DNA of 64,000 nucleotides from contig CM075996.1 of assembly GCA_038087875.1 (NCBI GenBank), positions 5,706,001 through 5,770,000 on the forward strand, read 5' to 3'. Position numbers and translations under genes: made by a program. This stretch comes from Malacoraja senta (Eukaryota). Under the pieces are notes generated by a model that saw nothing but the letters and a program-made list of their open reading frames with translations, was not told where the DNA came from and made no database searches. This document shows positions 345 through 56,081 of this stretch, piece by piece. The first letter of the stretch is position 1. The number at the start of each line of letters is the position of its first letter.

Positions 345-650
345 GCAGCGGGCGCCACTATAACAGTGCAGGAGGTCACGGACAGACGCGATGGTGAATT
401 AAAGCCGTCGTCAATGAGAAGCTGTGGGTCACTCCTGTGAACCAAGTGCACTGGCATCGCAAAGAAACCATTCAGCCTGCATTTGATTTCCCCTCCGTGG
501 AGAAGGTCACAATGCGACCAAATGCAGCACACAAGACTGGAAGTGCAGGTGAATTGCTGCTTCACCTGGAAAGATACTTTTGTGTTCCTGTACAGGGGTG
601 AAAGGATATACATGGAGAAGTCCCATAAGATGGTGATTGAGGGGCATAGA
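345..650 (-). mobile_element. Penelope-like GIY-YIG fragment (decayed)
   Basis: SFQVKQQFTCTSS...FNSPS, similar to the 30767 ORF. Confidence 0.7.
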
Positions 651-5819: not shown

Positions 5820-8800
5820 GGATGAGGGGAACAAATATAATCTATCCAAGTGTATTAATGATACTGAGCTGAGTAGCTATGTAGATTGTAAGGATGATGC
5901 AATAAGAGTATTCAAAGGGATAAAGGCTGAATTAAAATAGGTCAAATGAGCAGATAATGCAGAATATAATGCAGAAAATTATGAGTTTCCAGTGAAGCTG
6001 GTAATATAACTAAAGAAGAGTATTTTATATGGGGTGGGAGATTGCAACCTTCACGTGGTCCGCCCTGTTTCGACCAATGCAATCAACGCGGTGTGCACAA
6101 TCAAATAAGATCAAATAGAACAAGTTGTCCTACAATGTCAGGCTGTGCACGCCATACGCAAGAAGAAGAAGAGTACTTTATAAATGAATACAAATTTTAA
6201 AGTGTTGGTGTTCAGAAGAACTTGGCTGTCCTTGCAAATCACTGCAATTTAACATGCAGGTATAGGATAAAAGTAAAAAAGAAAAATTAAATGTTAGCTT
6301 TTATTGCAAGAGGATTTGTGTACAAGAGTAGAGCTCTTACAGGGCTGCAGCAAGACCACAACTGGAATATTGTGCGCAGGCCAGGTCAAGTCTCCCCTTC
6401 AGGATATGCAGGTCACCACCGATTTTCCGGCAACTGGTGGTCCCACACTTCCATTAATCCGGACAAAATTATGAGAGCACACTTGAAGTCTCCCCCAGAA
6501 GTCCCCCCGAAAATGTGGCGCCTAGGCTGGGTGAGGTAATGATTTCACCCTCCTTGGGACTTCCATGCTGATCGACGGGTGAATTTGCTCCCTGTGGCCG
6601 GGCTCTGGAACTCCGGCCTGGCTAGAGCCGGCAGATCCGTTCCCATAGCTGACTTTGCAGGCCGGTATCTCGCCCCCCTTGGCGGCCTAGGTGGACCTTT
6701 CTGGTACCGTTGGACTCCTCTCAGAGGCTGTGACCTCTGTTGGTCCGGCAAAACGGATAATCCAGAAAGGCTCTGAAACCACGGATGCCAGAAAATCTTG
6801 CACTTGCAAAAGAGGGAGTGCAGTGAGGGTTCACCAAAATAATTTCTGGGATTGAGGGGGTTTGGCTGGTTGGATCGGTGGCGGTGGTTGTTGTCTCAAG
6901 TGAAGGGAGATTGAGCAAAGATCATACTTTTCACAGTTTAGAGGACATTATCCTTTGTATGTCCACCATCTTCAACAAGGTTCCAGCATTGGTCAAATCA
7001 TCCTTTCCCTCTCCTCTTTCAGCATTCTGAATGCATCATTCCCTTTGCAACTCCCTGGTTCGCTCTACCATTCCCATCAACACTTCTCTTTCTCATGCCA
7101 AATTCCTGTCCTGCTGCAGAGATACAAAACTTGCCATTTCATCTCACTCTTTTTTTCACTTGGTGGTGAAGAAGGTATTTGGCACGCTTGCTTTCATTGG
7201 TAAGTATATAGTAAGTAAGTAGGTAAGTAAGTAATTTTTATTGATATAGCACTTTTAAATCAAATCACGTTGAAGCCAAAGTGCTTTACAGAAAAAAAAT
7301 TAGATTACCATATATCCATATAAAATAAAAAAGAGAAAAAAGACACAATACACTATAGGACTCAACATATAGATAGAGCTCTAGGGGCTAGTGGAATCAA
7401 GGGATATGGGGAGAGGGCAGGCACGGGTTATTGATTGGGGACAATCAGCCATGATCACAATGAATGGCGGTGCTGGCTCGAAGGGCCGAATGGCCTCCTC
7501 CTGCACCTATTTTCTATGTTTCTATGATTGAGTACAAAAGTTGCAAATCATGTTGAGACCACACGGGGCCCTGTATGCAGTTCTAGTAGTTCAGCTATAG
7601 GAAGGATTTTATTAAGCTGGAAATGGTGCAGAAGGGATTCACCAGGAAGTTACCTAGGCTGTGTAGGAAAGAACTGCAGATGCTGGTTTAAATTGAAGGT
7701 AGACACAAAATGCTGGAGTAACTCAGTGGGTCAGGCAGCATCTCTGGAGAAAAGGAATGGGTGATGTTTCGGGTCGAGACCCTTCTTCAGACTTGTGGGC
7801 TTGAGTTGTTAAGAGAGAATGGATTGGCTGGGACTTATTTCTTTGGAGTGTAGGAGGCTGAGAGGTGACCTTGCTGAGGTGTAGAGGATCATGAGAGACA
7901 TGGATGAAGTGGACACACACTGTCTTTTCCCCAGGATAGAGCATTCTAAAACTGGAGGGCATAGGCCTTGTTGAGAGGGGAAAGATTTAAGAGACTTCAG
8001 GGGCAACTTTTTCCTCTCAAAGGGTATTCCATATCTGAAATGAGCTGCCAGAGGAAGCTATAGAAGCAGATACAGTTATAATTTTTAAGACATTTCCACA
8101 AATGTATGGAAGCAAGGGTTTAGAGGGCTATGGCCAAGTGCGGGCAAATGGGACAAAACCAGTATGCCAACTTGGTCAGTGTGGAGAAGGTGGGCCGAAA
8201 GGCCTGTTTCTGTGCCATACTGCCCTATGATTATAATTGGGGAGCCCAAAATACCTTCCAGGTGAAGCACATTGGATTTCTTCTAATAAAATCTATTATA
8301 TTCAGTACTCCTACTGATGGAGAAATTGAATGCATGAATACCTTCATTCAGTCTGTAGGGGGAACCCTTAGTTTCTAGTCACCTGCCACTTTAATTTTCT
8401 GTCACTGTTTCAACTGTGTACAACCTCTAACTACAGAAATTTAACATTGCAGCATTCATGAATTACACAGGCTGCATCTCTAATCTGAAACTGTCCCAGA
8501 GCTAGATGTTAAGAGTCAAAGCTGCAAATTCCCCACATTTGTTTTGACACCAAAAAAAATGTTATTGGTAATTGTATCCATGCCTTGGGGCCCTAACCCA
8601 GGGAAAGGTGAGTGCAATCTATCCACACCGAGCAAACGAAGCCTGGAGAAGAGAGGGGGGGGGGGGGGGGGGGGAGGAAAGAGGAGAGGAGAAAAGGGTT
8701 GAAGAGGGACTAGAGGAGAGTGGAAAGATGCAATCAATTTGGTCGGAACCAGTTAACCTTCAGATCTCCAGTTGTGCAGCCTTCCTCTCCCTATTGTCTC

Positions 8801-9647: not shown

Positions 9648-10130
9648 GGTACACATAAAATGCTGGAGAAACTTACTCAGCGGGTGCAGCAGCATCTATG
9701 GAGCGAAGGAAATAGGCAACGTTTCGGGCCGAAACCCCTTTTTTTTTTAAAATAGGATGGAGTCGAGGTAGGTGGAGATGAGTTCGGTGGGGCACGAACA
9801 GGCAGAGACAATGGGTCTACCGGGACAGTCAGGTTTGTGGATTTTGGGGAGAAGGTAAAAGCGGGCTGTGCGGGGCTGGGGAACGATGAGGTTGGAGGCT
9901 CGGTCGGGCAGGGCGTGGGAGTGGATGAAGTCGGTGATGGTGCTGGAGATGGTGGCCTGGTGCTCGTCAGTGGGGTCATGGTCCAGGGGTAAGTAGGAGG
10001 AGGTGTCCGAGAGTTGGCGCGTGGCCTCAGCTTTGTAGAGATCGACGCGCCAGACTACCACGGCACCTCCCTTGTCGGCGGGTTTGATAACCCAAGCTAG
10101 GTTGTTGCGGAGTGAGTCGATGGCAGTGCG
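9648..10130 (-). mobile_element. Penelope-like insertion: RT fragment joined to terminal repeat, 12-bp TSD
   Basis: IKPADKGGAVV...FYLLPKIHKP..PGRPIVS; TAATTATTCCTT at 9636-9647 and 10131-10142. Confidence 0.85.
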
Positions 10131-10949: not shown

Positions 10950-11850
10950 TGCATTATCTCGACTAACAGACGAGGTCCCAGAGGACCGAAGACCAGAGAA
11001 TATTGTCCTTTTATTTAAGAATGGATATAGTTTAAGCAGCAAAATTATAGTCCAGTAGATCATGTCAGTGGCAGGGAACAATTGAAGAGAATTCTTAGGG
11101 ATAGGATTTACGTGTATTTGAAAGAGAATGAGTTAAATGGGAACTGTCATCATGGCTTTGTCTGGGGCAGGTCATGTTTTACAAACCTTATTGAATATTT
11201 TGAGGATGTGATGAAGGGGGTTGCTAAGGGTAGGGAGGTAGATGTTGTCTACATGGAAGACAATAAGGCATTTGACAAGTCTGAAGAAGGGTTTCGGCCC
11301 GAAACGTTGCCTATTTCCTTCGCTCCATAGATGCTGCTGCACCCGCTGAGTTTCTCCAGCATTTTTGTGTACCCAAGGCATTTGACAAGGTCCCTTAAGG
11401 TCCCGCGGTTTGGATTCAGAATTGGGTTACCCATAAAGGACAGAGGATAAAGGTGGAAGGTTATTACTATTCTGACTGAAGGGGGAAAGATTTAATGGGA
11501 ACCTAAGGGGTAACTTTTTTAAACAAAGGGTGGTGGATGTATGGAACAAGCTTCCAGAGGCAGTAGTTGAGGCAGGTACTGTTGGGTTTGGGTTCCTCCC
11601 GCTTCCCAAAGATGTGGGTATTAGGCTGACCAGTGAAAATTGCCCCTAAATTGTAGTCAAAGGGGGAGAAGGGCCTGTTGGTACCATAACAACATTTAAA
11701 TGTACTATAGTGATTTTGTAAAGACATTTGGACAGATGTACGGAGAGTAAAGTTTTAGAGGGATACGGGCCAGGTGGGACTAGCATAGATGAGGCATTTT
11801 GGTCGGCATGGGCAGAAGGGCCCGGTTCAATGCTCTATGACTCTGAGAAC
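10950..11850 (+). mobile_element. CR1 LINE fragment (decayed)
   Basis: HGF..GRSCFTNLIEYFEDV...VDVVYM...KAFDK and a CR1-type 3' end. Confidence 0.75.
11280..11374 (+). mobile_element. 95-bp Penelope-derived mini-element with a hammerhead-like core, 15-bp TSD
   Basis: AAGGCATTTGACAAG at 11265-11279 and 11375-11389, inside a CR1 RT fragment. Confidence 0.85.
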
Positions 11851-13730: not shown

Positions 13731-14876
13731 TGTCACATCCTGGCCTTAGACAGGGCTGCCAACTCTCACGCTTTGAGCATGAGAGTCACGCATTTCAGCC
13801 AATGCTCACGCTCATGACAGAATTCTCACGCTGTCTTCAGTCCCTGCACAGTTTGTCTCTTTTGCGCCACATCACAGCGATCTGTGCAGTCTGGGGAAGC
13901 GCGTCAGTTGGCGGCTGTGAGTGACGTCGCATCTCTTCTCTTCTCTTCTTTCTTGGTTGGATGTGCAGCCGCCGACAACATGAAGCAGCCGGAGATAGAA
14001 CTAACCAGGTGAATTGGTTGTAAAACATGGGGAGGCCAAACATCTAGGACAGGGTTCGGCAACCTACGGCACACGGGCCGAATCCGGCGCGTAACCCGAA
14101 AAACTGAGGGGGTTTTTCCAATTCGTTTTCACGGGGTCGGGGCAGGCAAGCCAACCTGAGAACTGCAGCCAGTCCCTGGGACGCGAGCTGATCTGGGAAC
14201 GGCAGCCAGTCCCTGGGCATGCAGAATGCCAACTTGATCATTATGAACAAATTGGGCCAGCCATGTGCATGTTGTATAACTCTGACTCTATGCAGATCTG
14301 AATGGGCTTAGAATGACCATTTAAGCAAAATTGCCCTCATTTTCCCCATTTTGATTCTTGAGATTAATATCCCTTTGCTCTGTTAACAGCGTTAAAGTAC
14401 TTATGAGGTAGCATCAGGAAAGGGAACGTTATTTTCTTTTACTTTGCTTTAATTTGTTAGTTGATTTTTTGTTGACTGCCATAATTTCTGAAATGGTCTT
14501 AATGTAACTTAACTGTTATAAAGCAGTAATAAGTGATTTTTGTCCAAACAATTGGAACTTGCATAAAATGTTTGCATTATTAGCAGGGCTGCCAACTCTC
14601 ACGCATTGAGCGTGAGACTCACGCATTTCACAAAACTCTCATGCTCTCACGCTGATCACAAAATTATATAATGAGAATAGGACCTGTTTTGCTTAACAAA
14701 TAGTGTAGGAAGGAATTGCAGATGCTGGTTTAAACTGAAGATAGACACTAAAAACTAGAAAAACTCAGCAGGACAGGCAGAATCTCTGGAGAGAAAGAAT
14801 GGGTGATGTTTCGAGTCGAGACCTTCAGCCTGAAGAGGTTGAAAACCAGCCATAAAACACAATGACTGGACATGTG

Positions 14877-15600: not shown

Positions 15601-16409
15601 CCTCGCTGGGACCACATCAACGGCTGACTGTGCAAGAGGTTGCAGAGGTTGCCGGGATTGGAAGGGAGATAACTGAGCTCTATCGGCCCCCTTGTAAGAC
15701 CGACTCCCTAGAAACTCCCGGGAACGTCTGTGATCCTTCATCAGAGGTTGATCCAGGTTCCCTGCCGAGGTTCTTAGAAACAGACCAAGGTAAGACCAGT
15801 TGGGCTTTATAGGTTTTTTTTTAAGAAGGGATTGTGTATGTATTTTTAAGACAGAATTGTGCATATATTTTTAAGAAGGGCTTGTGTATATTGTTAAGAA
15901 GGACGTGAGTGGTTTCTCTTTCTCTCTCTCTCTGTCTATCTCTCTTTGTTTTCTTTTTTTTCTTCTCTCTCTCTCTCTCTACTAAGGGCTCATCGGCCTC
16001 GTTGAGATATCCGTGATTTGTCGGGTTGAGATACGGGGGTTGAGGTGTGCGTCTGGCTTATTGAGACATCCGAAGAGTTGTCGGATTGAGAAATAAGTGG
16101 CGTTGTATATTAAAGAGTAAGAAGTCTGCCAGGTTGAGAAACGGGGGTCCCGGTTAGCGGGTCTGCTTCGTTGAGACACCTGGGGCTTATTTTAGGTCTG
16201 CCAGGTTGAGAAACGGGGGTCTCGGTTAGCGAGTCGGCCTCGTTGAGACACTTGGGTCGTATATCAAAGAGGTAAAAAAAAATAAAAAAAATAAAGTCAG
16301 CCAAATTGAGAAACTGGGGTCTCGAGTAGCGAGTCGGCCTGGTTGATATATTTGGAACGATTCGGAATTAAGAAGTCTGCTTTCTCTATCTCTTTCTCTC
16401 TATCTATCT

Positions 16410-17354
16410 ATGGGGAATGCTCTGGATAACAGTGAGGGGGGAACCCCCGTCCAACATATGTGTTATTTGAATCCTAAGTATAATAAGAAATTTAGAATGT
16501 TAAGTTACAAGTTGACCAAACGGTTGGGGGATGAAGCCGCGCCAGTAGGGGGCACATGGAATGTTGAGACAATTAAAAAAGCAGAGATGTTGATATGGGA
16601 AAGGAAGGCAGGAAAGAAATGGAAGAAGGGAATTAAAACGTGGAAAGCAGAAGCAGAGAAGAAGCATGAGGAGAGTAGAGATCGAAGTTGGATGGATACT
16701 GCATGTAAACAAGGGATAGAGTTACGAAATAAGGATGGCACTATGAAAGGATGGAAAGTATTGCAACTAGAATGCCAGTGGGCGGAGGAACAAGAGAAAA
16801 TAATTAAGAGACAGGCAGGAGGTGAGAAACAGGTGATGGTTAGTAAAAATAAACCCAGTACTGGTAAATCCTCTGGAGGAGACTTCATGTCTGGCACGAC
16901 GACCCTGTTTGGTAGTGAAGATGAGGAGTTAGATAATCTTGGGAGATGTCCACCTCCCTACGTCCTACCAGTAGCAATGGCATCCTTACCTGTGGCAGCT
17001 CCGTCAGTAATATCCCTATACCTTGAAGTTCTGACCTTACAAAGCTCCCCAGGATTGGGAGCACGGGAATGCCTTTCTGTGCGTTATTTGCTTAAGGCAT
17101 TGATGATACCAGAACACCTGACCATTATTAAATGTGCTGCACACACTGGTGCTGGGGACCCTATAACCAAAGGCAATGCATTTGCCGATAGTGTAGCCAA
17201 ACAAGCAGCCTATGCATACAAATGCTTAGTGACAGCAGCTAAACAGATGCTAGCAAATAGAACGGTCCTGCCAAACATGAGGGAGGTATGTACATTACAG
17301 AGGGACACTTCATATATAAAAACAACTATGGAAACAAGAGGGCTGTGCCATTGA
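16410..17354 (+). CDS. ERV Gag N-terminus fused in frame to the RNase H C-terminus (314 aa)
   Basis: Starts MG (myristoylation-type), has a PPPY late domain, then IIKCAAHT...GNAFADSVAKQAA (retroviral RNase H end). Confidence 0.75.
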   Translation: MGNALDNSEGGTPVQHMCYLNPKYNKKFRMLSYKLTKRLGDEAAPVGGTWNVETIKKAEMLIWERKAGKKWKKGIKTWKAEAEKKHEESRDRSWMDTACKQGIELRNKDGTMKGWKVLQLECQWAEEQEKIIKRQAGGEKQVMVSKNKPSTGKSSGGDFMSGTTTLFGSEDEELDNLGRCPPPYVLPVAMASLPVAAPSVISLYLEVLTLQSSPGLGARECLSVRYLLKALMIPEHLTIIKCAAHTGAGDPITKGNAFADSVAKQAAYAYKCLVTAAKQMLANRTVLPNMREVCTLQRDTSYIKTTMETRGLCH

Positions 17355-17949: not shown

Positions 17950-19579
17950 CAAGCAACTATGTTATAAAAATTGGGGATGAAGGAAAATTCGGTGGAGAAA
18001 TGAGTATAGGGTAGGGAGACTGAAAAGTCACGGGGAGTCTGACTAATCATGATCTGGATCAAAGTCCAATTAGGGTTAGGTAACCAGGATTCTGGTAAAC
18101 AGAAGTCTTGTCAGAAAAAGGGAAAGTAAATTACAAAGAGACGTCTTTGAAGATGAAATATTATATACTGCTGGTAAAACAAATTTTTTTGTGTATGTAC
18201 TGCTTGTAAAACAATGTTTTTTGTATGTGGAATGTGTGAAATTTGAAGCAATGAGCAGAGGTGTGTGTCCCTTTAAGAACAGTTTGTCCTTTAAAATGCA
18301 AATGAACAGGCAGGTTATGGTGTGTTCCTTTAAGACACTGCCATGAATGGGGGGTGGAGCTATACTCAAATGATAAAATGTGTTGGATGTTATAAATCTT
18401 TTGAGCCGAGTTCAAAAAGAGACTCATCCCAATTAAAGTGTTAAATGAGATTGGAAATGTCAAAATTACAGAGAAAAAGAAAATGTATTATTGATTACTG
18501 ATTCTGAGTGAGTTCTTTTGGGAAAGATTTTATTGATGTGATAACAGAGGTTGTGCTTTAAAATGCAAATGAAGCAAGATTACGGTCTGCAGACGAACAA
18601 AGGTGTTGAAGCATGTGCTGTGTAAGGGAAATGAATGTACATGTAAAATTGTCTTATGGCTTACAAAATGGGGTTTGAGGGAACTCATAATGAGGGATAA
18701 AAGGTGAGAAGATAAGTAGATTGGGGAAGAGAACATATTTGGAGAATTTAATATTTACGTGGGGAGAACCTCTTCAGATATAATCGGATTAAAGAATAAG
18801 TTCACAGAGAAGTGTTTAAGAAGGAACTGCAGATGCTGGAAAATCAAAGGTAGACAAATGTGCTGGAGAAACTCAGGGGATGAGGCAGCATCTATGGAGC
18901 GAAGGAAATAGGCATCATTTTGGGCCGAAGCCCTTCTTCAGAGTAGATTGGGGCCATTCAACTGCAGCTAGAGAAACAGGATTTACAACTTTTTTATTGA
19001 TACAGGAAAGGCTGCTGTGCCCACCCCCTGGAGAGTGGGGGGAAGCCACCTACAGGCCCTGGACAATTAACTAATTATGTATGGACAGCAATTAACCCAG
19101 GTCTTGCCAGATCTGCATTCCCAGGTTAGAGGAGCTGGGCTGAAAACCAGTGAGCACAGGGACGAGTCCATAAAGGCTACAAAATGACCATGTGCTGGGA
19201 CAAGAAGAAATTGAGATTGTGTTGAAAGGAACAACCAAGTGCTATCAACAACATAAACTGCTGTGAAGATTGAAGATCATCATCGTTGGATACATTTGAT
19301 TGACTGTGAACGGTTTGTGGAGTTATTGACCCTCCTTTTATTCTGGGGTGGCCCACATGGACTGGACTTTCTTCAGAATGGCAAACTTGCAGACTAACCC
19401 ACATTTAAAGGATGGTACACACCTCCTTTTAAACAAGATTGGAGTCAAACATGACAAGTGCAGCAAAGATACCCTGACTACAGACAGTGAGATAATTTGC
19501 CTGATGAGATGCTTATGGTCTTTCGTATGTACTCGGCAAGGACTGTAGTTATTATCAAGATTTTGATAAAAGGATGGAT

Positions 19580-20604: not shown

Positions 20605-22227
20605 CAGTGGCTTGCAAAAGTTTTCATACCCCTTGAACTTTTCCACATTTTGTCACGTTACAACCACAAACGTAAATGTATTTGATTGGGATTTTATGTG
20701 ATAGACCAACACAAAGTGGTGCATAATTGTGAAATGGAAGGAAAATGATACATGGTTTTCAAATGTTTTTACAAATAAAAAACTGAAAAGTGTGGCGTGC
20801 AAAAGTATTCAGCCCCCCTGAGTCAATACTTTGTAGAACCACCTTTCGCTGCAATTACAGCTGCAAGTCTTTTGGGGTATGTCTCTACCAGCTTTGCACA
20901 TCTAGAGACTGAAATTTCTGCCCATTCTTCTTTGCAAAATAACTCAAGCTCAGTCAGATTGGATGGAGAGCGTCTGTGAACAGCAATTTTCAAGTCTTGC
21001 CAGAGATTCTCAATTGGATTTAGGTCTGGACTTTGACTGGGCCATTCTAACACATGAATATGCTTTGATCTAAACCATTCCATTGTAGCTCTGGCTGTAT
21101 GTTTAGGGTCGTTGCCCTGCTGGAAGGTAAACCTCCGCCCCAGTCTCAAGTCTTTTGCAGACTCTAACAGGTTTTCTTCCAAGATTGCCCTGTATTTGGC
21201 TCCATCCATCTTCCCATCAACTCTGACCAGCTTCCCTGTCCCTGATGAAGAAAAGCATCCCCACAGCATGATGCTGCCACCACCATGTTTCAGAGTGGGG
21301 ATGGTGTGTTCAGGGTGATGTGCAGTGTTAGTTTTCCGCCACACTAGTTTTCAGCGTTTTGCATTTAGGCCAAAAACTTCAATTTTGGTCTCATCTGACA
21401 AGAGCACCTTCCTCCACATGTTTGCTGTGTCCCCCACATGGCTTGTGGCAAACTGCAAACGGGACTTCTTATGGGGTTTTTTCAACAATGGCTTTCTTCT
21501 TGTCACTCTTCCATAAAGGCCCGATTTGTGGAGTGCACGACTAATAGTTGTCCTGTGGACAGATTCTCCCACCTGAGCTGTGGATCTCTGCAGCTCCTCC
21601 AGAGTTACCATGGGCCTCTTTGCTGCTTCTCTGATCAATGCTCTCCTTGCCCGGCCTGTCACTTTAGGTGGACGGCCATGTCTTGGTAGGTTTGCAGTTG
21701 TGCCATACTCTTTCCATTTTCGGATGATGGATTGAACAGTGCTCTGTGAGATGTTCAAAGCTTGGGATATTTTTTTATAACCTTACCCTGCTTTAAACTT
21801 CTCCACAATTTTATCCCTGACCTGTCTGGTGTGTTCCTTGGGCTTCATGATGCTGTTTGTTCACTAATGTTCTCTAACAAACCTCTGAGGCCTTCACAGA
21901 ACAGCTGTATTTATACTGAGATTAGATTACACACAAGTGGACTCTATTTACTAATTAGGTGACTTCTGAATGCAATTGGTTGCACTGGATTTTATTTAGG
22001 GGTATCAGAGTAAAGGGGGCTGAATACTTTTGCACGCCACACTTTTCAGTTTTTTATTTGTAAAAAAAATTGAAAACCATGTATCATTTTCCTTCCACTT
22101 CACAATTATGCACCACTTTGTGTTGGTCTATCACATAAAATCCCAATAAAATACAATTACGTTTGTGGTTGTAACGTGACAAAATGTGGAAAAGTTCAAG
22201 GGGTATGAATACTTTTGCAAGCCACTG
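20605..22227 (-). mobile_element. Tc1-like DNA transposon (Passport/PPTN-like), full length 1623 bp
   Basis: About 213-bp TIRs (CAGTGGCTTGCAAAAG...) with inner and outer direct repeats; TA TSD at 20603-20604 and 22228-22229. Confidence 0.95.
20823..21848 (-). pseudogene. Tc1 DD34E transposase, inactivated
   Basis: MKPKEHTRQVRDK...GRPPK...SDETK...QQGNDPKH...SPDLNPIE. Premature stops near codon 22 and after FGLNAKR; the second catalytic Asp reads Gly. Confidence 0.92.
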
Positions 22228-22860
22228 TATATTTTTACATATATATCTTAATTTCATTGAACCATATATGATTGAATATGTGGCATTATTTTTGTCTTGT
22301 TTCTATATTCAAAGGGTAAGGTTGAAACCGTCTGAAGAAGGGTTTCGGCCCGAAACGATGCCTATTTCCTTCTCTCCGTAGATGCTGCCGCACCCGCTGA
22401 GTTTCTCCAGGAATTTTGTCTCCAGCATCTGTAATTCCTTCTTGAACAAGGTTGATTGATTTATTTGTGCAGAACAGTGATGGAAGTCCGACTTTTGCTT
22501 TGTTTCTCTGAGTTTTTCATCTATATATATACATAACAGCATGAATATAATCTGATTTCCATATATGAATACAGTCATCCATGTGCTGCACCTGTTGATC
22601 AGAGCCTGGCTCTATTGTGGAATGTAATTAGGAATGTAATTTAGCCTAACCTTATTCATACCTAATCCAATTTAAAGCATAAATGTTGCAATCAAATGAA
22701 AGTTAAAAGACTCGCTACAGTATGCACCAGATTGCACAATTTCAAGCTGAAAAATGCAAAAGCTCCCTACTGTGGGAGGGGGAACCCCCCCCCCTCCCCC
22801 GGTCGCTACACTCCCTCGCAATTTCTCACTCTCAACTCTCACCCAATGTTGGCAGCCCTG

Positions 22861-24146: not shown

Positions 24147-24246
24147 GGTAGACAAAAATGCTGGAGAAACTCAGCGGGTGCGGCAGCATCTATGGAGCGA
24201 AGGAAATAGGCAATGTTTCGGGCCGAAATCCTTCTTCAGACTGATT
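24147..24246 (-). mobile_element. 100-bp Penelope-derived mini-element, 9-bp TSD
   Basis: CTCAGCGCA at 24138-24146 and 24247-24255. Confidence 0.8.
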
Positions 24247-25619
24247 CTCAGCGCACTTTCTGATACCAATCCCATATCCATTGATTCCCTTTGCATATAA
24301 AAATCCATTGATCTCTATCTTGACTGGTAGGAGACCATGAGCCTAGTTCTAGATGGCCCAGCCAGACGAACCATAAACTCATGGAACATGAACATAAACA
24401 TGGAACAATTGGAAAAACATAGAACGTATAGGGACAGCACAGTGACACATCTTACAGAACCGTTGCCTCACAGCGACAGAGACCAGGTTCAATCCCAACC
24501 TCGGGTGCTATCTGTGTGGAGTTCTCCCAGTGACTGCGTGAGTTTCACTGGGAGCTCCGGTTTCCCTCCACACCCCAAATACGTGTGGGTTGGTAGGTTA
24601 ATTGGCTGCTGTAAATTTCCCCTAGTGTATAGGTGAGTGGCAAAATCTGGGGGAAATTGATAACAATATGGGGAGAAAAAACTAGGAGTAGGTGTTAGTG
24701 TAAATGGGTGGTTGATGGTCAGCGTGGAATCTGTCGGCAAAAGCGTTGTTTCCATACTGTATCTCTCTTTTTTTTTTAAACTGTCAGACCCTGTGAACAT
24801 TTCAATGAGATCACCATACATGATTCTAAATTCAATAGTTATAAATCCAATCTTTTTATTTGTCTAGAGATGTGAAACCATCCCAGAAATCAATCTGGTA
24901 AACCTTGCTGCATTCCTGCCATAGAAAATATATCGAGTATCTGTGGACATGCATCCACATTCTCCGTAACCATCTTGTTTAAGGTATTGCCTTTCTATTC
25001 AAAAGAGCACAAAGTGCTGGAGTAACACAGCAGGTCAGGCATCATCCCCAAAGAACATGGATAGGTGATGTTTTGTCTCAAGACCCTTCTTCAGATTGCC
25101 TTTCAGTCTCACTAATTTCTCCAGTACTAATTGTTCACTAATGCTAGTTCCATAAGATGATCTTTTTAATATTATTCATACATTTTCTTAGAATCTGTAT
25201 TTATGTTTTTGCAGCCTACTTTCATGTTCTACTTACCGTTTCTTTATCCACACTTTAGTTCTCCTTAGCTCTATTTCTTTCACTGAATCCATTCCTTTCC
25301 CCATGTCTTTAAAATGGAAGACTGCGCTTTTCCTAGTCACTTGTGCTCAACTGTGAGCTTCCCAATTTCTTGTTTTGGCAAAGGTTCTGCAATCCCCTTT
25401 CTCATTACAACATCAGCAGGACAATTGCATGAGTCTAGCAATTTAATTTAACCTCATTAATACTCACAATACGCACGGAGGAATATCAAAGCCATCTGCC
25501 TTCATTTGGTCACATATCAGAAAAGCCTTGATTATCTGGTGGTTTGAATCTCTGCTAAACCAGAAAATCTTACATCATTTCAAGCCAGCACAGAAACATT
25601 CCCATACTGAAACACTTTA

Positions 25620-26095
25620 CCATTCCCATACTGACCTTTCTGTCCTGGGCCTCCTCCATTGTCACAATGAAGCCAAACGCAAATTGGAGGAACAACACGT
25701 CATATTTCACTTGGGCAACTTACAATCCAGCGGTATGAATATTAATTTCTCTAACTTCAAGTGAGCCTTGCATTCCCTCTCTCTCCGTCCCTCCCCCACC
25801 CTAGTCATTGTACTAGTTTCACTGTCGTTCTGTTGAGTTTCACTGTCAGTATAACTCATTATCACCTAGCCCATAGCCAACATTTGACCATTGTGGGCTC
25901 CACCTTTCCTTGTTCATCGTTACTTTTTGCATATCTTTCATTCATATGATTTATACATCTCTATATCACCGTCTATATTTCTCGTTTCCCTTTTCCCTGA
26001 CTGCCTGAAGGGTCTCGACCCAAAACATCACTTATTCCTTTTCCCAAGAGATGCTGCCTGACCTGCTGAGTTACTCCTGCTTTTTGTGTCTAACT
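25620..26095 (+). mobile_element. Penelope-like 3' fragment with terminal repeat
   Basis: SHTDLSVLGLLHCHNEAKRKLEEQHVIFHLG..QSSGMNINF, then the terminal-repeat motif. Confidence 0.8.
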
Positions 26096-29000
26096 GCATC
26101 TTACAGTTCACTATTCTTGTTTAGACATTAGATTGTGCAGGCTGCAAAAGGGCAGCCTGGAATAAGGGGATTCAAAAACAAAGCTACTTTCCTTGTCTGC
26201 TGGTGTTGCTGGAAATACTGCGGTTTAGACATTGCACCATGCTATGGTATTTTGGGCATATAGTTCATCATGCTGACCGTTGGGGTTTCCTTTTGTAATA
26301 TCATGCTGAAACTGACATTATTAAATTCAGTCCACAGTTCTGCAATGAAGTATGGCAAGTTCTGGTAGATATTACTGTGTGACTCATCCTATGCTATCTT
26401 TCCAGGCAACTCTTAAAGGAACAAACAAGCACAAGTGCTCTACAAGCAAGCAGATGTTCTTTGCACTGAAGAGTGCAGAGAGCATTTAGTGCCACAGTCG
26501 AAATTAGCTGGGGAAGCCTTTTTTAGTGAAGTCTATGAATCCCTGTACTTTGAGGAATCAAATGTCTGTGCCTCTGCTCCGTGCTCCAGTGTTCAGCTTG
26601 TGTTCTGTTAATCTGTCTCAAGCTAACCAAGGACACCAAATTATTGTCCTTTCCTTTTGCTTCAACAATAGACCTGGTGGAAAAGGTTTATTTGGAAGAC
26701 AATAGTTTCAATTGCCCACTTGTATCTACTATAGGATAGCTGCCCAAGTGCATGGCACGAGAATTCTGCCCCTGCCTCTTCCAGTAACAAGATTTATTGG
26801 CCAGACATGACCTTGGAGTTGATGCAGGGTCTCGACCTGAGATATCGACTATCTCGCTGCCTCCACAGATGTTGCCTGAGTTTCTCCAGCAGTTTGTTAT
26901 TTTTTGCCCTGGATTACAGCATCTGCACTTTTATGCATCTACATGATCGCTGACCTCCCCACTCACATGCTGGTGGAAAGCAGCAGCAGCCGCCTTTAAT
27001 GATCCTAGGGCTGGGAGGTTAAAGAGTGACATGACCCCAATCATCATGGGCAATGTAGTCAAGGTATATTTTTGAGCCAATGTTTGAGGTCATAGGAGGT
27101 TGCAGATCTGAGTAAGTTGAAAGTTCATTTTGAGTGATGGGCTTTTAAAGAGCACTGTTTCATGGGAATCATGATTTGTAGAAATATTATCCCACGAGTT
27201 AATAAAAATCATTACTTTTCAGAACAAATGTAGTTTCAAATCCCATTGCAGGCAAATTGTGAGTTTTACACAACCATTTGAAGAATCTTCACACTGAAAC
27301 TGCTGCGAAATGAAAAGACAAACTTGCCAAACGATGATAATGTACAGAAAATTGTCTTCAGTTAATCTTTTTTATTTTTTTATTTTTTAAATTTTATTTA
27401 TTAGAAGCACATTACGTTACAACCACATCCATTAGTACTCGTCACATATATTTTATTACAATTAATGTACTCCGTTTTTTTTTTTTTTACATTAATAAAG
27501 GGAGAGGATAAGATTAAGAGAAAGAGGAAAGTGAAGGAAAAGGTGAAAGTGTAAAAAAAAAAAAACGTGACAACAAGAAAGAACAAAGACCCTATAAGAA
27601 AAAGAGATAAGAAGTAGACCCTAGAAAAGAAGAAGAAAAAGAGTTAATCTACTTTGGGTTATTTTCATGTACACAGCACTTTATACTTGGAAACAGAAAA
27701 TGCTGTAAATATGTAGGTCAGGCAGCATCCGTGGAAAGTGATTTTACAAATGCTATCTGATCTGCTAAGTGTTTCAAACATTTCCTGATAATATTTCAGA
27801 TTTCCTGCATTTGTAATTTTTTGTTTTTTCACTTTTTTATGGATCTAAAATGAATTTCTAGCACACTTCTAAATTGGAAAGCTGGTGAAGCTAAGTCAAA
27901 GGTGTAATTTGGTTAGAGGTAAATTTTTCAAGACTATCACTCTATCATGTGACAGTTCGAGTTAATAAGTACAAAGAGAAAAAGGAAAATTCTACCATAA
28001 TGTAAACTAAGATATGGAAAGCAAATGCTTGAAAAGGTAAGGAATACCATCACTATGGATGCAGCTATGTTTCAAGGTGAAACAGAATTACCCGTTTCTA
28101 ATGCAACTGACCCAACAAAGAAATTGTGCACAATCTAGTAACAACATTCCCACTATGGTGAAATAGATATTGTAATCAAAGCTGCTAATTGTCAAACAGT
28201 CTTTGATCCTGTAAATCTTACATGTGTGTAATTCAAATAAAAACTGGTCATACATGATTGAAACTGTCAGTTAAGATGTACTGTTTTATTGTTATTATCG
28301 TGATCATAAAAGTGTTAATATTGTGATACTAAATCAGTGCATTGACTTTATTCGCTGATTCTTTTCTTTATAGAGACATCAATTTTGTTTTCTTTTAGTT
28401 GCTCATCAATAACTTTCCACTTTTATCAGGCCGGGAGAAGGAAGGTTTACTGATTATTTGTAACATTCAACTCCATTCACAACTTCTTCCAAAATTATTG
28501 GCTTGAGCTGACAAGTCTTCCCTTAGATTCATAAGGCCAGACCAATCATCACCAATAAAAAGAAAAGATAAACCCATAGCTCTTCAGGACATTTTAGCAG
28601 TGCCATCATTGACCAGATGTCCACCATCATCAACACTTTGAGATCACTAATAGGAGGCTTTAAAGGATTATTAAATAGACCAGCACATTGCCTACACTAC
28701 TGCCACACAGCAGCTACAGTATGTAATAATTATGGAATTCACTGCAACGATTCAGCTCAACAATACTTCCCAGCCATGCGATCTTTCACATCTAAAATGT
28801 CATGGATATATAGCTGGCTTCACATTATACACAATCTAAACTTGGACTTGCAGAATTACAAGTTTTATGGCTATATGTTAGTAGCCATACATTTACTTAT
28901 TCACAACAATTGGAAAACAAGGTAATGGGAAAAATGAGTCCTTTAACATCATTATTTTAGAGCTTTGGAATTGCCTATCTATTATTTTAGTGCACAAGTA

Positions 29001-30759: not shown

Positions 30760-31680
30760 AGTATAGATGAGGCTCTCACCAGGGTCTCCTCTATATCCTG
30801 TAGCTCTGCTCTCACTCCCCATCCCCCCACTCATAACAAAGACAGTCCCCCTTGTCCTCACCTTCCACCCCACCAGCCGTCACATACAACAGATAATCCT
30901 CCAACATTTTCGCCACCTCCAACAGGATCCCACCACTGGTCACATCTTCCCATCTCCTCCCCTGTCGGCTTTCTGCAGAGACCGTTCCCTCCTCAACTCC
31001 CTGGTCAATTTGTCTCTTCCCACCCAAACTACCCTCTCCCCTGGTACTTTCCCTTGCACCCGCAGGAAATGCTACACTTGTCGCTTTACCTCCCCCCTTG
31101 AATCCATCCAAGGACCCAAGCAGTCCTTCCAGGTGCGGCAGAGGTTCACCTGCACCTCCTCCAACCTCATCTATTGCATCCGCTGCTCTAGGTGTCAGCT
31201 GCTCTACATCGGTGAGACCAAGCGTAGGCTTGACGATCGCTTCACCCAACACCTCCGCTCGGTTCGCACTAACCAACCTGATCTCCCGGTGGCCCCGCAC
31301 TTCAACTCCCCCTCCCATTCCGAATCCAACCTTTCTGTCCTGGGCCTTCTCCATGGCCTGAGTGAGTCCCACCGCAAATCGGAGGAGCAGTACCTCATAT
31401 TTCGCTTGGGCAGATTACACCCCAGCGGTATGAACATTGACTTCTTCAATTTCAGGTGGTCCTTGCTTTATCCCTCCTTCCCCTCCCCTTCCCAACTCTC
31501 CCACAGCCTACTGTCTCCGCCTCTTCCTTTCTTCTTCCCGCCTCCACATCAGTCTGAAGAAGGGTCTCGACCCAAAACGTCACCTATTCCTTCACTCCAT
31601 AGATGCTGCCTCACTCGCTGAGTTTCTCCAGCATTTTTGTCTACCTTCAATTTTTCCAGCATCTGCAGTTCTTTCTTAAA
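30760..31680 (+). mobile_element. Penelope-like element 3' part: GIY-YIG endonuclease plus terminal repeat with a hammerhead-like core
   Basis: ORF 30767-31621 contains FTCTSSNLIYCIRC...YIGETKRRL..RF..H; CTGAAGAAGGGTCTCGACCCAAAACGTC at about 31554. Confidence 0.9.
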
Positions 31681-33572
31681 CTCTAAATCATTTATGGTGA
31701 TTTTTTTTGTCAATATTGCCTGCCTGTAAAAGAGTAACATGGGAGACCGAAGATAAACTTTAATTCAAGCATGTTTTTCAAATTAGTGTCCTCATTTTAC
31801 TATGAATGGAGAAAAAAAATTGTCGTTCATGAACTGTTGATCCAAATTCTACGTCAAGAATGTGCATTTTTCAGTATGATGGTGTCTTCATAAGCACAAA
31901 ACGGGGCAATACGGCAAAACAACTAGTGCAAGGTCTAATTGTCAATGGATGGGTCATCGGGTGGAAATTAGCACACAATTAATATACGTGACCGAAATGC
32001 TTTTATTTGTCAATTTACAACACAATCAGCTAATCTATTCCTCCAATGGTCAATGCTTTACTATCATTATTCTGGTTATTAGTTTCTGGGCCAAAAGATT
32101 TTAGTACTGCTGTGGCATCCAATCCCACTGATTCAGTCCAAACAGACCTCCTAATCACATGTGACAATAAACTATTCCATTCCATTCCATTCCAATTAGG
32201 GTTTAATAAACATTTCTGTGAAGCACCCTGTTTGAATGTATATGCTGATGCTGTTTTCTTATTGACAGACAATGGGTGCCCAAGAAAATGCAACAATCTA
32301 AAAGGTATAGCTAACAAAAAATGTAAAGATAAATAATTGATTACATAATTGTCAGAAAAAATATTACATTATCATTACAATGATTGCTTAAACATTTTGC
32401 AATGCCAAACATTAATACCAGGTCCAATGGAAAGAGGAATCCTAATAGTTACACCTGATTTTAGAAATAGAAACAAAATTGCTAAAAATGAGGTCAATTT
32501 GTTTGTTCAGACTGTTCAGAAGGCTCTGGGAATGAAGACAAATTGTGATGAAATGTCTTTGATGCAAAATATTAATCTATTTCCACTGATGCTTCCTGCC
32601 CTGTATTCCAGCATTTACTGTTTTTATATCTTAAACACTGAAGTTGCATTGAGAGTTTGGATAATGTAGTACCATTACTTAAAAGTACAGTTAGATATAA
32701 AGTTACTGATTGATAATCACTCAAGATCTTTCTCCTCTCTTCCACTTGAGCTATCTCACACCTTTCATGCTCCCTTCCTCTCCACTCTCCACATTCTGTC
32801 CAGGTTCTCCTCTCTCCCCAAGCTTCCTGTTCCAGAGGATCTCCACCACCAACCTTTACCTCTTCCCCCAAATACAATATTGCAGTCTTAGGACTCTCTC
32901 TTTCTCTCTCTCGCCTCCTCCCAACTCCATCCTTTTCCTCCCTCCAAAAACACAGAACTCTTCAATAACTTTCCACCTGGGCTCTCACCCTGCCCCTCTT
33001 TCCTCTCTTCTCCTCTGCTCTCCTAGTTCTCCATCTCCCCTCTCAATATTTTCCAGATTATCAAATTCTTCCACTTCTACTACCCCAAATTCCTGGGCTC
33101 CCAACATCAGAAGCACCTCTTCCTCCCAACATCAGAAGCACCAATCTGCTATATATATGACACCTTTTCAACATTAATATCTCCTACACCCACATCCATC
33201 CATCCAGACCTCAATGCCCCTACTATCATAAGTGATAGGAGAAGAATTAGGCCATTCGGCCCATCAAGTCTACTCCAACATTCAATCGTGGCTGATCTAT
33301 CTCTTCCTCCTAACCCCATTCTCCTGCCTTCTCCCCCATCAATAATCTATCTATCTCTGCCTTAAAAATAGCCATTGACTAGGCCTCCACTGCCTTCTGT
33401 GGCAAAGAATTCCACAGATTTACCACCCTCTGACTAAAGAAATTCCTCCTCATCTCCTTCCTAAATGGTCCCCAGAGGTAGGATATGTGCGGGGATCGCT
33501 GGTCGGTGCGGACTCGATGGGCCGAAGGGCCTGTTTCCGCGCTGTATCAAACTAAAAAACATAAAGCCACCC

Positions 33573-33990
33573 CCACCAATTCATACCTCACCGTGTCCCA
33601 CATTGGAAGTCCACCAATTCATACCTCACCATGTCCCACATTGGAAGTCCACCAATTCATACCTCAGCATGTCCCACATTGGAAGTCCACCAATTCATAC
33701 CTCAGCATGTCCCACATTGGAAGTCCACCAATTCATACCTCACCGTGCCCCACATTGGAAGTCCACCAATTCATACCTCACCATGTCCCACATTGGAAGT
33801 CCACCAATTCATACCTCAGCATGTCCCACATTGGAAGTCCACCAATTCATACCTCACCGTGCCCCACATTGGAAGTCCACCAATTCATACCTCACCATGT
33901 CCCACATTGGAAGTCCACCAATTCATACCTCAGCATGTCCCACATTGGAAGTCCACCAATTCATACCTCAGCATGTCCCACATTGGAAGC
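33573..33990. repeat. Minisatellite, 11 x 38 bp (CCACCAATTCATACCTCA[C/G]C[A/G]TG[T/C]CCCACATTGGAAGT)
   Basis: Units start every 38 bp from 33573 to 33953, with no spacers. Confidence 0.97.
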
Positions 33991-34210
33991 CAACCTCAGC
34001 CATCCCCCCCCCCCCCCCCCCCCCCACTCCCTGGGCTCTCTCCCGCGCGGCGCGCGCCAGCCCGCCCGTTCAAGCGCCAACGGCTTCTCCGTGGCCGCTC
34101 GCCTCGCGCCAAACGGCCTCCGCTCCGGGCGTCGAGCAGCGGCCATGAAGTCCGGCAACAGGTACAAAAAAAACAAACCCCATGAGGACACCACCGAAGG
34201 AGCACGGACG
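33991..34210 (+). promoter_or_regulatory. CpG-rich putative promoter/5'UTR of the sacsin-like gene
   Basis: Dense CpG (cgcgcggcgcgcgcc) in a CpG-poor background. Sequence is C-rich upstream and G-rich downstream. Confidence 0.6.
34145..34209 (+). CDS. SACS-like: Sacsin-like gene, putative coding exon 1 (MKSGNR...; donor after 34161 or after 34209)
   Basis: GCC-ATG at 34145 in a CpG-rich stretch. Two GT donors (CAG|GTACAA and GAC|GTGAGC) are both phase 2 and join in frame to exon 37950. Confidence 0.55.
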
Positions 34211-34229
34211 TGAGCGGTGGTCTGTTGAC

Positions 34230-36956: not shown

Positions 36957-37052
36957 AGTCTGAAGAAGGGTTTCGGCCCGAAACGTTGCCTATTTCCTTC
37001 GCTCCTTAGATGCTGCCTCACCCGCTGAGTTTCTCCAGCATTTTTGTCTACC
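36957..37052 (+). mobile_element. 96-bp Penelope-derived mini-element, 10-bp TSD
   Basis: TTCTGTAAAC at 36947-36956 and 37053-37062, inside a SINE. Confidence 0.82.
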
Positions 37053-38039: not shown

Positions 38040-39047
38040 GTAAGGCAGGAAAGGCTTTTGAGGCGAGTTATGTTAAGAAAGTGTCCATGTATTTTGTTCA
38101 AATGGAAATTTGAAACAAATTTGTTCAGTAGAAAATAAGACTAACTAATCTGATTAATGTTTAGTGATGAACATGGAATAATACATTTACGTGTAAAAGA
38201 CAATAAATTGCCAGTTAATTCTTTTGAAAACATTGATCCACATTTCTTTACATACACACATTTGAATTTAACCTTCATAACTAATGAGTCTATTCAGACT
38301 GGTTGGAAAAGTCTTTCTGGTCTTTTTAATTTGTACATTAAAGCAGAAGAAAATTCAATGATAAAACAAATTGTATCGCCAAATAAATTTTATTCTGCTG
38401 GGCATGCTATTTTATTTTGACATCCAGTCCTTTCTCAGTGTTCCCTAATTCTAGCTTTACCGATTGGCATAGAAGATAATTCTTGGAACATATTTGAGTT
38501 CCTCTTTATTTATTGAATCTATTATAAATTTGGGCCTAAAAATTCTTTGGCCCCATGCCCCCAAATACACTGATTGCACAAATTAAAACATATTTAGATG
38601 ACATTAACCAATTTTGCACATATTTTCAAGTGAGTTCGCATCATTCTCAGACCATGTATAAATTGTAGGATGAAATTCAAAAATATGCAACTGAGTTGCA
38701 AACAAAGTAGAAGGAAAGGGGGAGAATTTTATCACCTTTGCCTCTAACTTCCACCCTGCCCTCAAATTCACATGGACTGCTACTGACACATCACACTGCC
38801 TCGGAAAGCAGCAAACATAATCAAGGAGCACTCACACCCTGGTCATTCTCTCTTTTCTCCTCTCCACAGTCAAGACTGCACTGTTTGCAAACAACATTTC
38901 ATTTATTTTTATACTTAGCAGTCCCTGGACTATGATGGCACAGCGGTAAAATAAAATAATTGGGTGTTGCAATTAAAGAAAGAAGCCATGGTACAACATT
39001 CATTTGGAATGAAAGTACAAGTGATAGATTATCTTTTATTGATATAG

Positions 39048-44017: not shown

Positions 44018-44261
44018 TTCCAGTATATTATCGTGCAGTATCACTGAGTACAATCTCACAAAAACTATATTTACATTTGCTGAAGAGGAAAACTGTTTTG
44101 TTATTTGCTTGTATATTGATCGGGAATGTTTAAGGCCATTCATTTTAGTTGAATCTAAAATTTGGTTGCTGTATATTTTTGGGAATTGAAAGTTAAATTG
44201 ACAACCTAATTTAGACAAGAGAATTATGATCTCTTAAAATATTTATAATTTTCTTTTCCAG

Positions 44262-45732
44262 ATGTACCAAGTATATTCAGTGGTAAATATATTGGTATAC
44301 TTGACCCACAACAAAAGCTGTTTGGAGAACAGGAAGCAGGATATATATGGTCCCTTGATGACCATGACGACAAAAAGGTTCTTGAACACTCCAAAGATCA
44401 GTTCAGACCATTCAAATATGCCATGGAAGTTATTGGGACAACAACATGGACTAATGCATTGAAAGAGAATTATTTCAAAGGAACATTGTTTCGGTTTCCA
44501 TTGAGAACTGAACCTTCAGAAATATTAGCTGGCTTGTATGATAGAGATAAAATTTTTGATCTCTTTGACTCCTTCAGAGCAGATGAAGATATGAATCTTT
44601 TGTTTCTAAGAAATGTTTCATCTGTCTCAATTAAGCATATTGACAACAGTGGAAATGTGAAGGACCTTTCAAAAATAGCAGCTTTGCAGCCTGAACACAT
44701 GCCCTGTTTTAATCGGAACGTCAGTGTTCAAAGCCAAGAACTAGTCTCTAAGGTCAAAACTTCTACCAGTATCAGAGCTATTTCTCAATTCTTTGTAAAA
44801 GAAAAGAATCACAATCACTGGTTAATAACAAATTGCACAGGCATTAGAGGTGAATTGGGTAAATTAGATGAGCTGGCTGAGAAGCTGAGTTATACACCAT
44901 GTGTTGGATTGGCCTTTCCTTTGAACAAACTAGAATCTACAGAAACTAGCACAAGAACAGATTTTGAAGGGCGTCTTAATTTCTTTCTACCACTTCCAAA
45001 TAATGAGGCCAACAAGACAGGATTGCCAGTCCATATAAATGCCTTCTTTGGACTTTCAGACAACCGGAGACATATAAAGTGGATCGAATCAGACCAAAGA
45101 TATGATGAAGCAGCACAATGGAACGAGCTCCTGATAGACAAGATCCTTCCCTTTGCCTATTGCCAACTTATCTTGGATGCCATTACTCTGACTAAAACCT
45201 CAGTGTTAAAACCTTTATCAGTGTATCATATATGGCCAAACCTTGAGAAAATGAATCATAAAGACCGTTGGATTAAGATATCTAAAGAAACCATAAAATC
45301 TTTGATGAAACTTGATACACTGTGCTTGGCTGCCAATGAAGAAAACTGGATATCTGCTGCCAAAGGCATCTTTTTACAGTGCTATGATCAGCTTGACATG
45401 AAGCAGGCAATTGAAAATGTTTTGATAAAAGAGGCTCAACCTTTGGTTAGAATCCCAGTTCATATATTCAAGGCCTTGAAATTTGCCTTGGAAAATCATA
45501 GTGAATTAAATGTTATCACTCCAACATCCCTACGAAACATTCTTCAGCATTGTGATTTGGACACTTTCCCATATGAACAAAAATTACTACTTCTAGAATA
45601 TGTTTTAAGTGATGAGCAATACAGTTCCCTCAACAACCTTCCACTACTGCCACTCACCAAGGGATCCTTTGTAAGATTTCAGATCAGTTCCTGTGAAGAA
45701 CTCGTGTTTACTGACTCAGCAAAATTTCCAAG
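44262..45732 (+). CDS. SACS-like: Sacsin-like gene, exon 6 (DVPSIFSG...GTLFRFPLR...TGLPVHINAFF...KFPR)
   Basis: ttttccag acceptor, AG|GTAAGC donor; contains ORF 44423-45736 with sacsin motifs GTLFRFPLR, FLPLP and TGLPVHIN. Confidence 0.93.
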
Positions 45733-55900: not shown

Positions 55901-56081
55901 ACATTTTGACAGATAACAATAACACAAAATTATGGCAATAAAAAATGAAAAAAAAGTTGCAGAACCATTACATTTTGATAAGCTTCCCTTCCTTTCTTCT
56001 AAGGGGCTTGATAGGGAACTTGCAGGGAGGATGTTTCTCCAAGCTGAGAGAGCTAGACCAGTGCATACAGTTTTAAACTAA

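Follow-up and report, generated by a model that had tools for sequence, protein, structure and literature searches.

The window analysed here, a stretch of 64,000 nucleotides, contains a set of short dispersed inserts of about 95–130 bases in overall length, which are real retrotransposed copies of a hammerhead-bearing Penelope end. The unit they carry is the pLTR end of GIY-YIG Penelope-like elements (PLEs) of a cartilaginous fish. We consider it likely that the inserts are by-products of autonomous GIY-YIG PLEs (Penelope/Poseidon type) with a fixed stop, and not a separate family. Some 20 places related to the unit were detected in the window by BLAST. For the comparison, 22 anchors were aligned against a reference copy and 19 copies among themselves; one of the 22 anchors (S) is a tail fragment, not a core, and carries no information.

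Short inserts flanked by target site duplications

Insert A is located at 11280–11374 on the forward strand and is a tail-less pLTR core belonging to a young subfamily, here called A-type. Its target site duplication (TSD) is 15 bp long and exact, with the left copy at 11265–11279 (forward strand) and the right copy at 11375–11389. The start of the insert is ambiguous, since the AG that closes the left TSD may also belong to the element as its bases 1 and 2. Insert B (24147–24246, reverse strand; 9-bp TSD at 24138–24146/24247–24255) includes five bases (ATCAG) of what precedes the core in the longer copy P described below. Insert C (36957–37052, forward strand; 10-bp TSD at 36947–36956/37053–37062) has as its first base exactly the A equivalent to position 31551 of P. 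In all three cases the repeats directly abut the insert. The original prediction had given these inserts with their coordinates, duplications and motifs and had called them nearly identical. All of this was confirmed: the repeats of 15, 9 and 10 bp are exact, and pairwise identity is 95%. The same motif had been noted behind the GIY-YIG ORF and at further places, and we found it there at 31553 and again at 2075 (on both strands), 7791, 18942, 22331, 56174 and 56692. The statement that copies end at TACC applies to A, B and C, but the recurrences at 7791, 18942, 22331 and 31553 continue with a tail of ~36 nt.

As background for the flanking repeats, the same search was carried out at 2000 random positions of the window. 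Exact words of at least 9 bp were shared at 45 of these positions and words of at least 15 bp at 12. Flanking repeats of at least 8 bp were found for 9 of the 19 inserts tested as against 79 of the 2000 random positions, with lengths of 15 bp for A, 12 bp for D, 11 bp for H, 10 bp for C and T, 9 bp for B and 8 bp for E, M and N. The other ten inserts tested, one of them the core of D taken by itself, had no flanking repeat of at least 8 bp.

Several further short copies are present. Insert E (22326–22447, forward strand; 8-bp TSD) comprises an A-type core and tail and has an internal deletion. Copies F (18813–18942) and G (7662–7793), both on the reverse strand, are short and composed of core and tail; the core is A-type in F, where the closing pair of stem II is C-G, and belongs to a second subfamily in G. 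A TSD was found for neither of them. Copies T (24996–25094; tail-less, within its 10-bp TSD) and Q (14703–14833; core and tail), again both short and on the reverse strand, are older.

The unit is the terminal repeat of ORF-bearing Penelope-like elements

Copy P (30767–31681, forward strand) is a 5'-truncated PLE made up of an ORF end, an intron-like tract, the core and the tail; a convincing TSD was not found. The C-terminal part of its ORF (30827–31456) contains a GIY-YIG domain (PF01541, 23.8 bits at a cut-off of 22.6), and the best 8 of its 28 homologues are shark or ray proteins with 55–66% identity, so that the window belongs to a cartilaginous fish. Next to it lies a putative intron of 97 nt (31456–31552; GT...CAG, 82% pyrimidine). 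The pLTR core of P (31551–31645) is colinear with the short inserts, shares 88–91% identity with A, B and C and has a predicted GUC cut site after 31581. The 36-nt tail (31646–31681), which is optional, fills the distance between both 3' end points of the family. All of these parts are located on the forward strand.

The same arrangement is seen in other copies. Copy M (25575–26097, forward strand) consists of an ORF end, a pyrimidine-rich spacer and a tail-less core within an 8-bp TSD. Copies J and K (56080–56797) are arranged head-to-head, J on the reverse strand with ORF end, spacer and core, and K on the forward strand with a pyrimidine tract, a deleted core and a tail. Insert D (9648–10130, reverse strand) is made up of ~370 bp of Penelope reverse transcriptase (RT) coding sequence, which is 63% identical to a Penelope-type protein, then a run of A and finally a core of A-type from which the first ~9 bases are missing. 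A single 12-bp TSD (9636–9647/10131–10142) encloses the whole insert and none surrounds the core by itself. The unit is thus colinear with the repeat following the RT/GIY-YIG ORF in P, M and J, and joined to RT sequence in D, as is a feature of EN+ PLEs. Among the 19 copies in the alignment, four (P, J, M and D) are linked to ORF sequence lying in their own orientation. The similar proteins found are unclassified ones, and the assignment of the elements to Poseidon is tentative.

The core of D is 99% identical to A over the aligned core columns. In a tree of 18 rows and ~100 columns, from which K was left out and in which 1 of 15 inner branches is strongly supported, D pairs with A (93/88) inside the A-type clade (99/96). 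This clade is young and comprises six copies, five of which are short; a full-length A-type element was not seen within the window. The four ORF- or intron-linked rows require four changes on the tree and the six TSD-flanked short copies three, so the short copies do not form one lineage. They occur in more than one subfamily and are interspersed with ORF- or intron-linked copies, as far as this weakly resolved tree goes. The original prediction had regarded the unit as SINE-like and mobilised in trans. The first half of this stands: the unit is non-coding, and since the short copies encode nothing they need the Penelope RT/GIY-YIG protein, in trans or in cis. The idea of a separate family, however, was not established, as the unit is the pLTR end of the elements, its copies are intermixed with theirs on the tree, and D carries RT sequence.

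Decayed fragments of Penelope ORFs were also detected by tblastn at 389–589 (reverse strand) and 38686–38793 (forward strand) of the window. Among the database proteins, the stingray gene model P0003 bears the name of a divergent protein kinase isoform and consists mostly of Penelope ORF, from which it departs at the donor of the ORF end, a position matching the 31456 segment. Likewise P0008, named "mucin-2 isoform", is mostly Penelope sequence.

Two 3' end points

Copies end at two sites located 36 nt apart, either after TACC (equivalent to 31645) or at the equivalent of 31681, which corresponds to the optional 30–40-bp tail of EN+ PLEs. Work with the purified protein of Anolis Poseidon showed nicking of both strands of AT-rich DNA and an internal start of the cDNA at two adjacent sites, which set the 30–40-bp tail (PMC11167929). 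The RT-EN protein of this element binds the region of the pLTR and ORF start, and copying runs toward the RNA 5' end; the RNA has to reach +172, past the main start site at +111–118. Mutating the hammerhead leaves insertion unaffected, and the ribozyme is cleaved only when the protein is present (PMC11167929). By analogy, both 3' ends observed here would fit the two-start-site and tail model of the Anolis element.

Clustered 5' ends, contig joints and a possible extra G

Eleven of the 22 local alignments start within −5 to +2 of position 31553, the T preceding CTGAAGA, and by eye copies F and G also begin at this point. We compared public contigs with the region 31000–31750 at 80% likeness in four of the 23 runs listed, from three organisms; two runs come from an organism matching 94–98% of a unique stretch and two from relatives. 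The loose ends and joints reported below were selected by the tool and are a small share of the total (24 of 4095 and 15 of 652 rows, respectively), so further pile-ups are possible. Among the rows listed, loose ends before 31551 and 31552 are present in all four runs with 667–1316 contigs per row, and their flanks of ~200–255 nt are AT-rich with a low agreement of 0.31–0.33. Loose ends before 31548 and 31549 (845–1726 contigs per row among those listed) have pyrimidine-rich, intron-like flanks, and longer copies are therefore common as well. Hence the 5' ends are clustered and not random, as the original prediction had expected, both in the alignments and in the pile-ups at two adjacent bases in every run. 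The idea of a mini-element is thus not overturned by random truncation; clustering alone is no proof of a SINE either. Summed contig depth on P also rises several-fold in the bin 31546–31571 in all four runs (in run X1 from 2.7 million in the preceding bin to 22 million, with 0.8–7.3 million in the ORF bins). Contig depth cannot rank the parts, divergent ORFs drop out at the 80% cut-off, and this step is not taken as evidence.

Ten of the 15 joints listed are head-to-tail returns from 31637–31647 or 31681 to 31549–31553, each of them found in all four runs. They correspond to units of 93–97 nt and 129–133 nt, which means that tandem short units exist. Among the 15 of 652 contig joints listed none skipped the intron-like segment, and neither a loose end nor a joint was found at the cut site 31581 among the rows listed. 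Joints from 31587 or 31588 to 31551, seen in three to four runs, represent a tandem duplication of the first 37–38 nt, i.e. of the hammerhead core, and would be natural minimal dimers.

Immediately outside the junction, the consensus is G in all four runs at 31551 and in three of four at 31552 (7 of 8 rows), with a G content of the window of 21.5%; this signal is that of a consensus letter and not of a measured share, and a G-bearing subfamily could contribute to it. In addition, a single G lies between the two sides of four joints returning to 31548 or 31551 (among the 12 of 716 rows listed). Within the window, G precedes the start A in none of the four copies beginning at the equivalent of 31551 (A, C, G and H). 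The G in the joints 31645 to 31595 and 31593 to 31562 was also considered as a cap signal and discarded, since it reflects the A>G letter of a subfamily at 31594. In the case of L1, copying of the cap has been given as the origin of a 5' G that is untemplated (PMC9341517).

Two readings of the fixed start site are offered by its sequence. TCAGTCT (31549–31555) fits the Pol II initiator consensus, with A+1 at 31551, which is one of the two pile-up positions. The site is also a pyrimidine tract followed by CAG and thus resembles a splice acceptor. In Drosophila virilis the 5' side of helix I is where the intron terminates (PMC4209133), and 46 bp separate the start site from the intron downstream of it (PMC2377424). 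With a start upstream of the intron and an intron end at helix I, the site seen here may be a mere splice acceptor. In the open-access literature searched, we came across neither a fixed 5' end or cap signature described for PLE inserts nor this shark family; so abundant a repeat is probably catalogued in Repbase or Dfam.

The hammerhead core

The minimal hammerhead core of A spans 11281–11308 on the forward strand and was identified by a descriptor match. It consists of CUGAAGA, an extra A, a 4-bp stem II with a UUCG loop, GAAA, the palindromic ACGU and GUU, and the predicted cut falls after 11308, inside the insert. The strict minimal-hammerhead descriptor matched four places (A, C, J and K), whereas 50 windows resampled by a Markov model averaged 0.02 matches. 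Together with an architecture that matches the published minimal hammerhead ribozymes (min-HHRs), this bears out the assignment to the minimal type I hammerheads of the Penelope kind. The core motif had been claimed for all three inserts. It is complete in A and C, but B is short of one stem II pair and no longer has the palindromic ACGU. The cut triplet is GUU in A and C and GUC in P.

Stem II is paired in 93.4% of cells across 19 copies, with a closing pair that is always kept (UA in 13, UG in 5 and CG in 1). The whole-structure covariation score was matched by 279 of 500 shuffles, so that stem II covariation, which had been proposed as a check, does not rise above the shuffle control. In Rfam, none of the 16 hits at E≤10 belonged to a hammerhead family. 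Stem I has 2 bp, is paired in 68% of cells and is shorter than the 4–5 bp expected of helix I in this class. Unusual fold stability was not seen in the six units tested (z from −2.0 to +0.9). The predicted probability of stem II is ~0 in A, C, P and J, 0.4 in G and 0.8 in one arm of I. The monomers A, C and P favour a predicted fold without stem II, and enforcing stem II costs 3.5–4.7 kcal/mol. The earlier doubt about monomer activity with a stem I of about 2 bp is therefore shared here, as the monomers of young copies prefer another fold. Any self-cleavage would probably need a dimer or the protein.

Ribozyme cleavage as the maker of either insert end was ruled out: the predicted cut is located ~30 nt inside the insert, and cleavage therefore defines neither end. 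The A-type subfamily has a 7-bp inverted repeat (11291–11305 in A, with equivalents in C, D and E) that overlaps stem II and GAAA. In addition, stem II and the stretch behind the cut site of this subfamily carry linked substitutions, A>G and C>T in each of them, by which the ribozyme may be silenced or switched.

Head-to-head pairs

Apart from J/K, three pairs of cores are arranged head-to-head. H (1346–1555) is an inverted pair with a tail on one side and an 11-bp flanking repeat, L (739–916) is a pair of truncated cores, and I (1977–2172) consists of two cores for which a TSD was not found. The cores of I meet exactly at the quasi-palindrome AG-T/A-CT at their common 5' start. Head-to-head copies are a known arrangement of PLEs (PMC8557442; PMC3846280). 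Of the direct or inverted pLTR arrangements and TSDs expected of this class, the inverted form is present in H, I, L and J/K, and flanking repeats in 9 of the 19 inserts. The junction of pair I, a single case, is as would be expected if two cDNAs both ending at +1 had annealed.

Origin of the short copies

We suggest that the RT-EN protein, as in Anolis, would start cDNA internally at either of two sites and proceed toward the 5' end of the RNA. Most events would then halt at one fixed point, which we infer to be the capped Pol II start of the template RNA (TCA+1GTCT). The protein would thus copy only the ~95 or ~130 nt between start site and cap, similar to a retroviral strong stop, and would integrate the product. 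Copies with spacer and ORF (P, M and J) would derive from read-through of a longer or tandem transcript, D from a template jump close to the same stop, and the head-to-head pair I from two run-off cDNAs meeting at the quasi-palindromic start. The hammerhead would be a passenger. The five upstream bases of B imply that its template extended past the proposed start. The tandem head-to-tail joints in all four runs are possible sources of new copies and count against the by-product reading. A more far-reaching version, to which we give well under an even chance, holds that strong-stop cDNA (primed in the 5' pLTR of a capped transcript beginning at the edge of the hammerhead, with cap run-off and an added G) is a major product of cartilaginous-fish Penelope elements, that two cDNAs primed on opposite strands of the target pair at the quasi-palindromic start and so yield the head-to-head copies, and that tailed or tandem products may re-enter as the Pol II, ribozyme-headed equivalent of a SINE.

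The fixed stop could also have a different cause while the inserts remain by-products, and we count this variant within the likelihood given to that reading. RT leaving the structured pLTR would stall at a protein-bound polypyrimidine tract or 3' splice site of a long unspliced RNA, and AG/CAG microhomology would join the cDNA to its target. The site itself suits such a roadblock, being 82% pyrimidine and followed by CAG. The D. virilis intron end takes the same place relative to the hammerhead (PMC4209133), and the stingray model P0003 exits the ORF at the corresponding donor. Microhomology amounts to two bases in A and one in C, with B reaching five bases further upstream. However, a stall should scatter wider than two adjacent bases, and the G as consensus junction letter in 7 of 8 rows is left unexplained. 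We give this variant less than an even chance and regard run-off at the cap as somewhat more likely than a roadblock at a splice-acceptor-like site. In an alternative to the by-product reading as a whole, the inserts would be a self-propagating non-autonomous family: the short, tailed or tandem copies would themselves be transcribed, either through read-through or with the help of an internal Pol II promoter, and the Penelope protein would re-copy them in trans. Copies linked to the ORF are far fewer in the window than short ones (4 of 19 in the alignment), five of the six copies of the young A-type clade are short, and joints lead from both 3' ends back to 31549–31553 in all four runs. Such a life is also known in principle, since in rotifer pLTRs in cis suffice to mobilise foreign DNA (PMC3846280) and Chlamydomonas has non-autonomous PLE derivatives (PMC8557442). 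We nevertheless regard this as unlikely, because short copies belong to more than one subfamily and the nearest relative of A carries RT sequence, and read-through transcription would not preserve a fixed 5' end. Furthermore, tail-less copies would be devoid of the binding region if the Anolis need for +172 applies here.

The existence of tandem units of 93–97 nt and 129–133 nt in all four runs would also be in line with a non-LTR retrozyme, whose units self-cleave as dimers, circularise and are reverse transcribed by rolling circle. The palindromic ACGU is suited to dimers, and known retrozymes derive from pLTRs and leave monomers (bioRxiv 10.64898/2026.07.22.740005). Yet a tandem array is absent from the window, the rows listed contain neither joints nor loose ends at 31581, and stem I of 2 bp, the GUU triplet and a predicted stem II pairing of ~0 in A and C speak against it. 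The monomers of coral and axolotl measure 220–350 nt, those of coral with canonical hammerheads (PMC7229834). A retrozyme origin is thus very improbable. Hardly any weight falls on solo pLTRs left by recombination between both repeats of longer elements. Recombination would retain the TSD, and solo pLTRs are reported from Adineta vaga, but those attributed to recombination in that study were without TSDs (PMC3846280). By itself this process also gives no fixed 5' end, no extra G, no head-to-head pairs and no D. By-products of the autonomous elements thus remain our preferred explanation.

Other features of the window

A frame of 495 aa at 44249–45736 (forward strand) contains a sacsin domain (Pfam SACS, 4.5e-22, and sacsin hits in the PDB) and is probably a host exon. 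Further mobile sequences comprise long, little-decayed non-LTR RT frames with RVT_1 hits at 41857–43928 (forward strand), presumably CR1-like, a fragment of a DDE_3 transposase at 20823–21350 (reverse strand), which we take to be Tc1/mariner-like, and an RT frame (RVT_1, 7.8e-23) with an adjacent frame at 51811–53674 (reverse strand), presumably DIRS-like. A frame of 335 aa at 16347–17354 (forward strand) has a weak RNase H match (E 0.007, below the cut-off) and may be a fragment of an LTR element or of retrovirus-like origin. At 33465–34213 a tandem repeat yields long repetitive open frames in three frames.

Significance

The element class, its hammerhead and tail, lone minimal hammerheads and pLTR-derived retrozymes with monomers are already known. 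The insertions form a huge natural collection in which two 3' ends and one 5' end are fixed; it records where RT starts and stops in vivo, and opens the question of the template (sense capped RNA, spliced or unspliced, antisense or ribozyme-cut RNA) to direct testing. It argues for lone genomic minimal hammerheads being passengers of abortive PLE events and not working ribozymes. If true, the strong-stop reading would account in one step for the many lone minimal hammerheads and the inverted pLTRs in animal genomes.

Comparison with known systems

The inserts resemble SINEs, including the hammerhead-bearing Sm-alpha of Schistosoma (PMC6765202), in being short, non-coding, very abundant and flanked by TSDs, and in having an end in common with an autonomous partner. 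Unlike SINEs, the unit has neither a Pol III head nor a tail of poly(A) or simple repeats, and it lacks sequence of its own, the whole of it being the pLTR of its partner. In line with this, no tRNA, 5S or 7SL family was among the Rfam hits, and the whole unit aligns to the PLE pLTR.

Non-LTR retrozymes are likewise non-coding, contain a type I hammerhead, are related to pLTRs and occur as monomers and tandem copies (PMC7229834; bioRxiv 10.64898/2026.07.22.740005), and they have been reported in the single chondrichthyan sampled (bioRxiv 10.64898/2026.07.22.740005). What defines them is a tandem arrangement of units whose hammerheads are complete and foldable, together with circular RNA in the cases tested. 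In contrast, the inserts described here are dispersed monomers whose ends match RT start sites and a fixed upstream stop, and not the cut site.

The core shares with the min-HHRs of PLEs (Cervera & de la Peña 2014, PMC4209133) the conserved boxes, the extra base before stem II, the G10.1-C11.1 pair, the palindromic 15.2–16.2 and the missing loop 3, and with the D. virilis variant the 2-bp helix I, at whose 5' side the intron of that variant and the putative intron of P end. It differs in that stem II has just 4 bp and in that the young subfamily has GUU and a competing predicted fold. In the accessible part of that paper sharks are not named. Most min-HHRs are described there as isolated motifs in scattered positions, "probably related to truncated PLEs".

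The closest agreement is with EN+ PLEs, for which we compared the accounts of Poseidon_Ac (PMC11167929), of PMC8557442 and of A. vaga (PMC3846280). Common to both are a C-terminal GIY-YIG in the ORF, a pLTR hammerhead, the optional 30–40-bp tail with two 3' end points, TSDs of 8–15 bp and head-to-head copies with a palindrome at the junction. In the parts of these accounts available, 5' truncation is described without a fixed point, whereas here very many copies start at two adjacent bases, possibly with an extra G. By the features tested, the inserts are truncated insertions of a canonical EN+ PLE.
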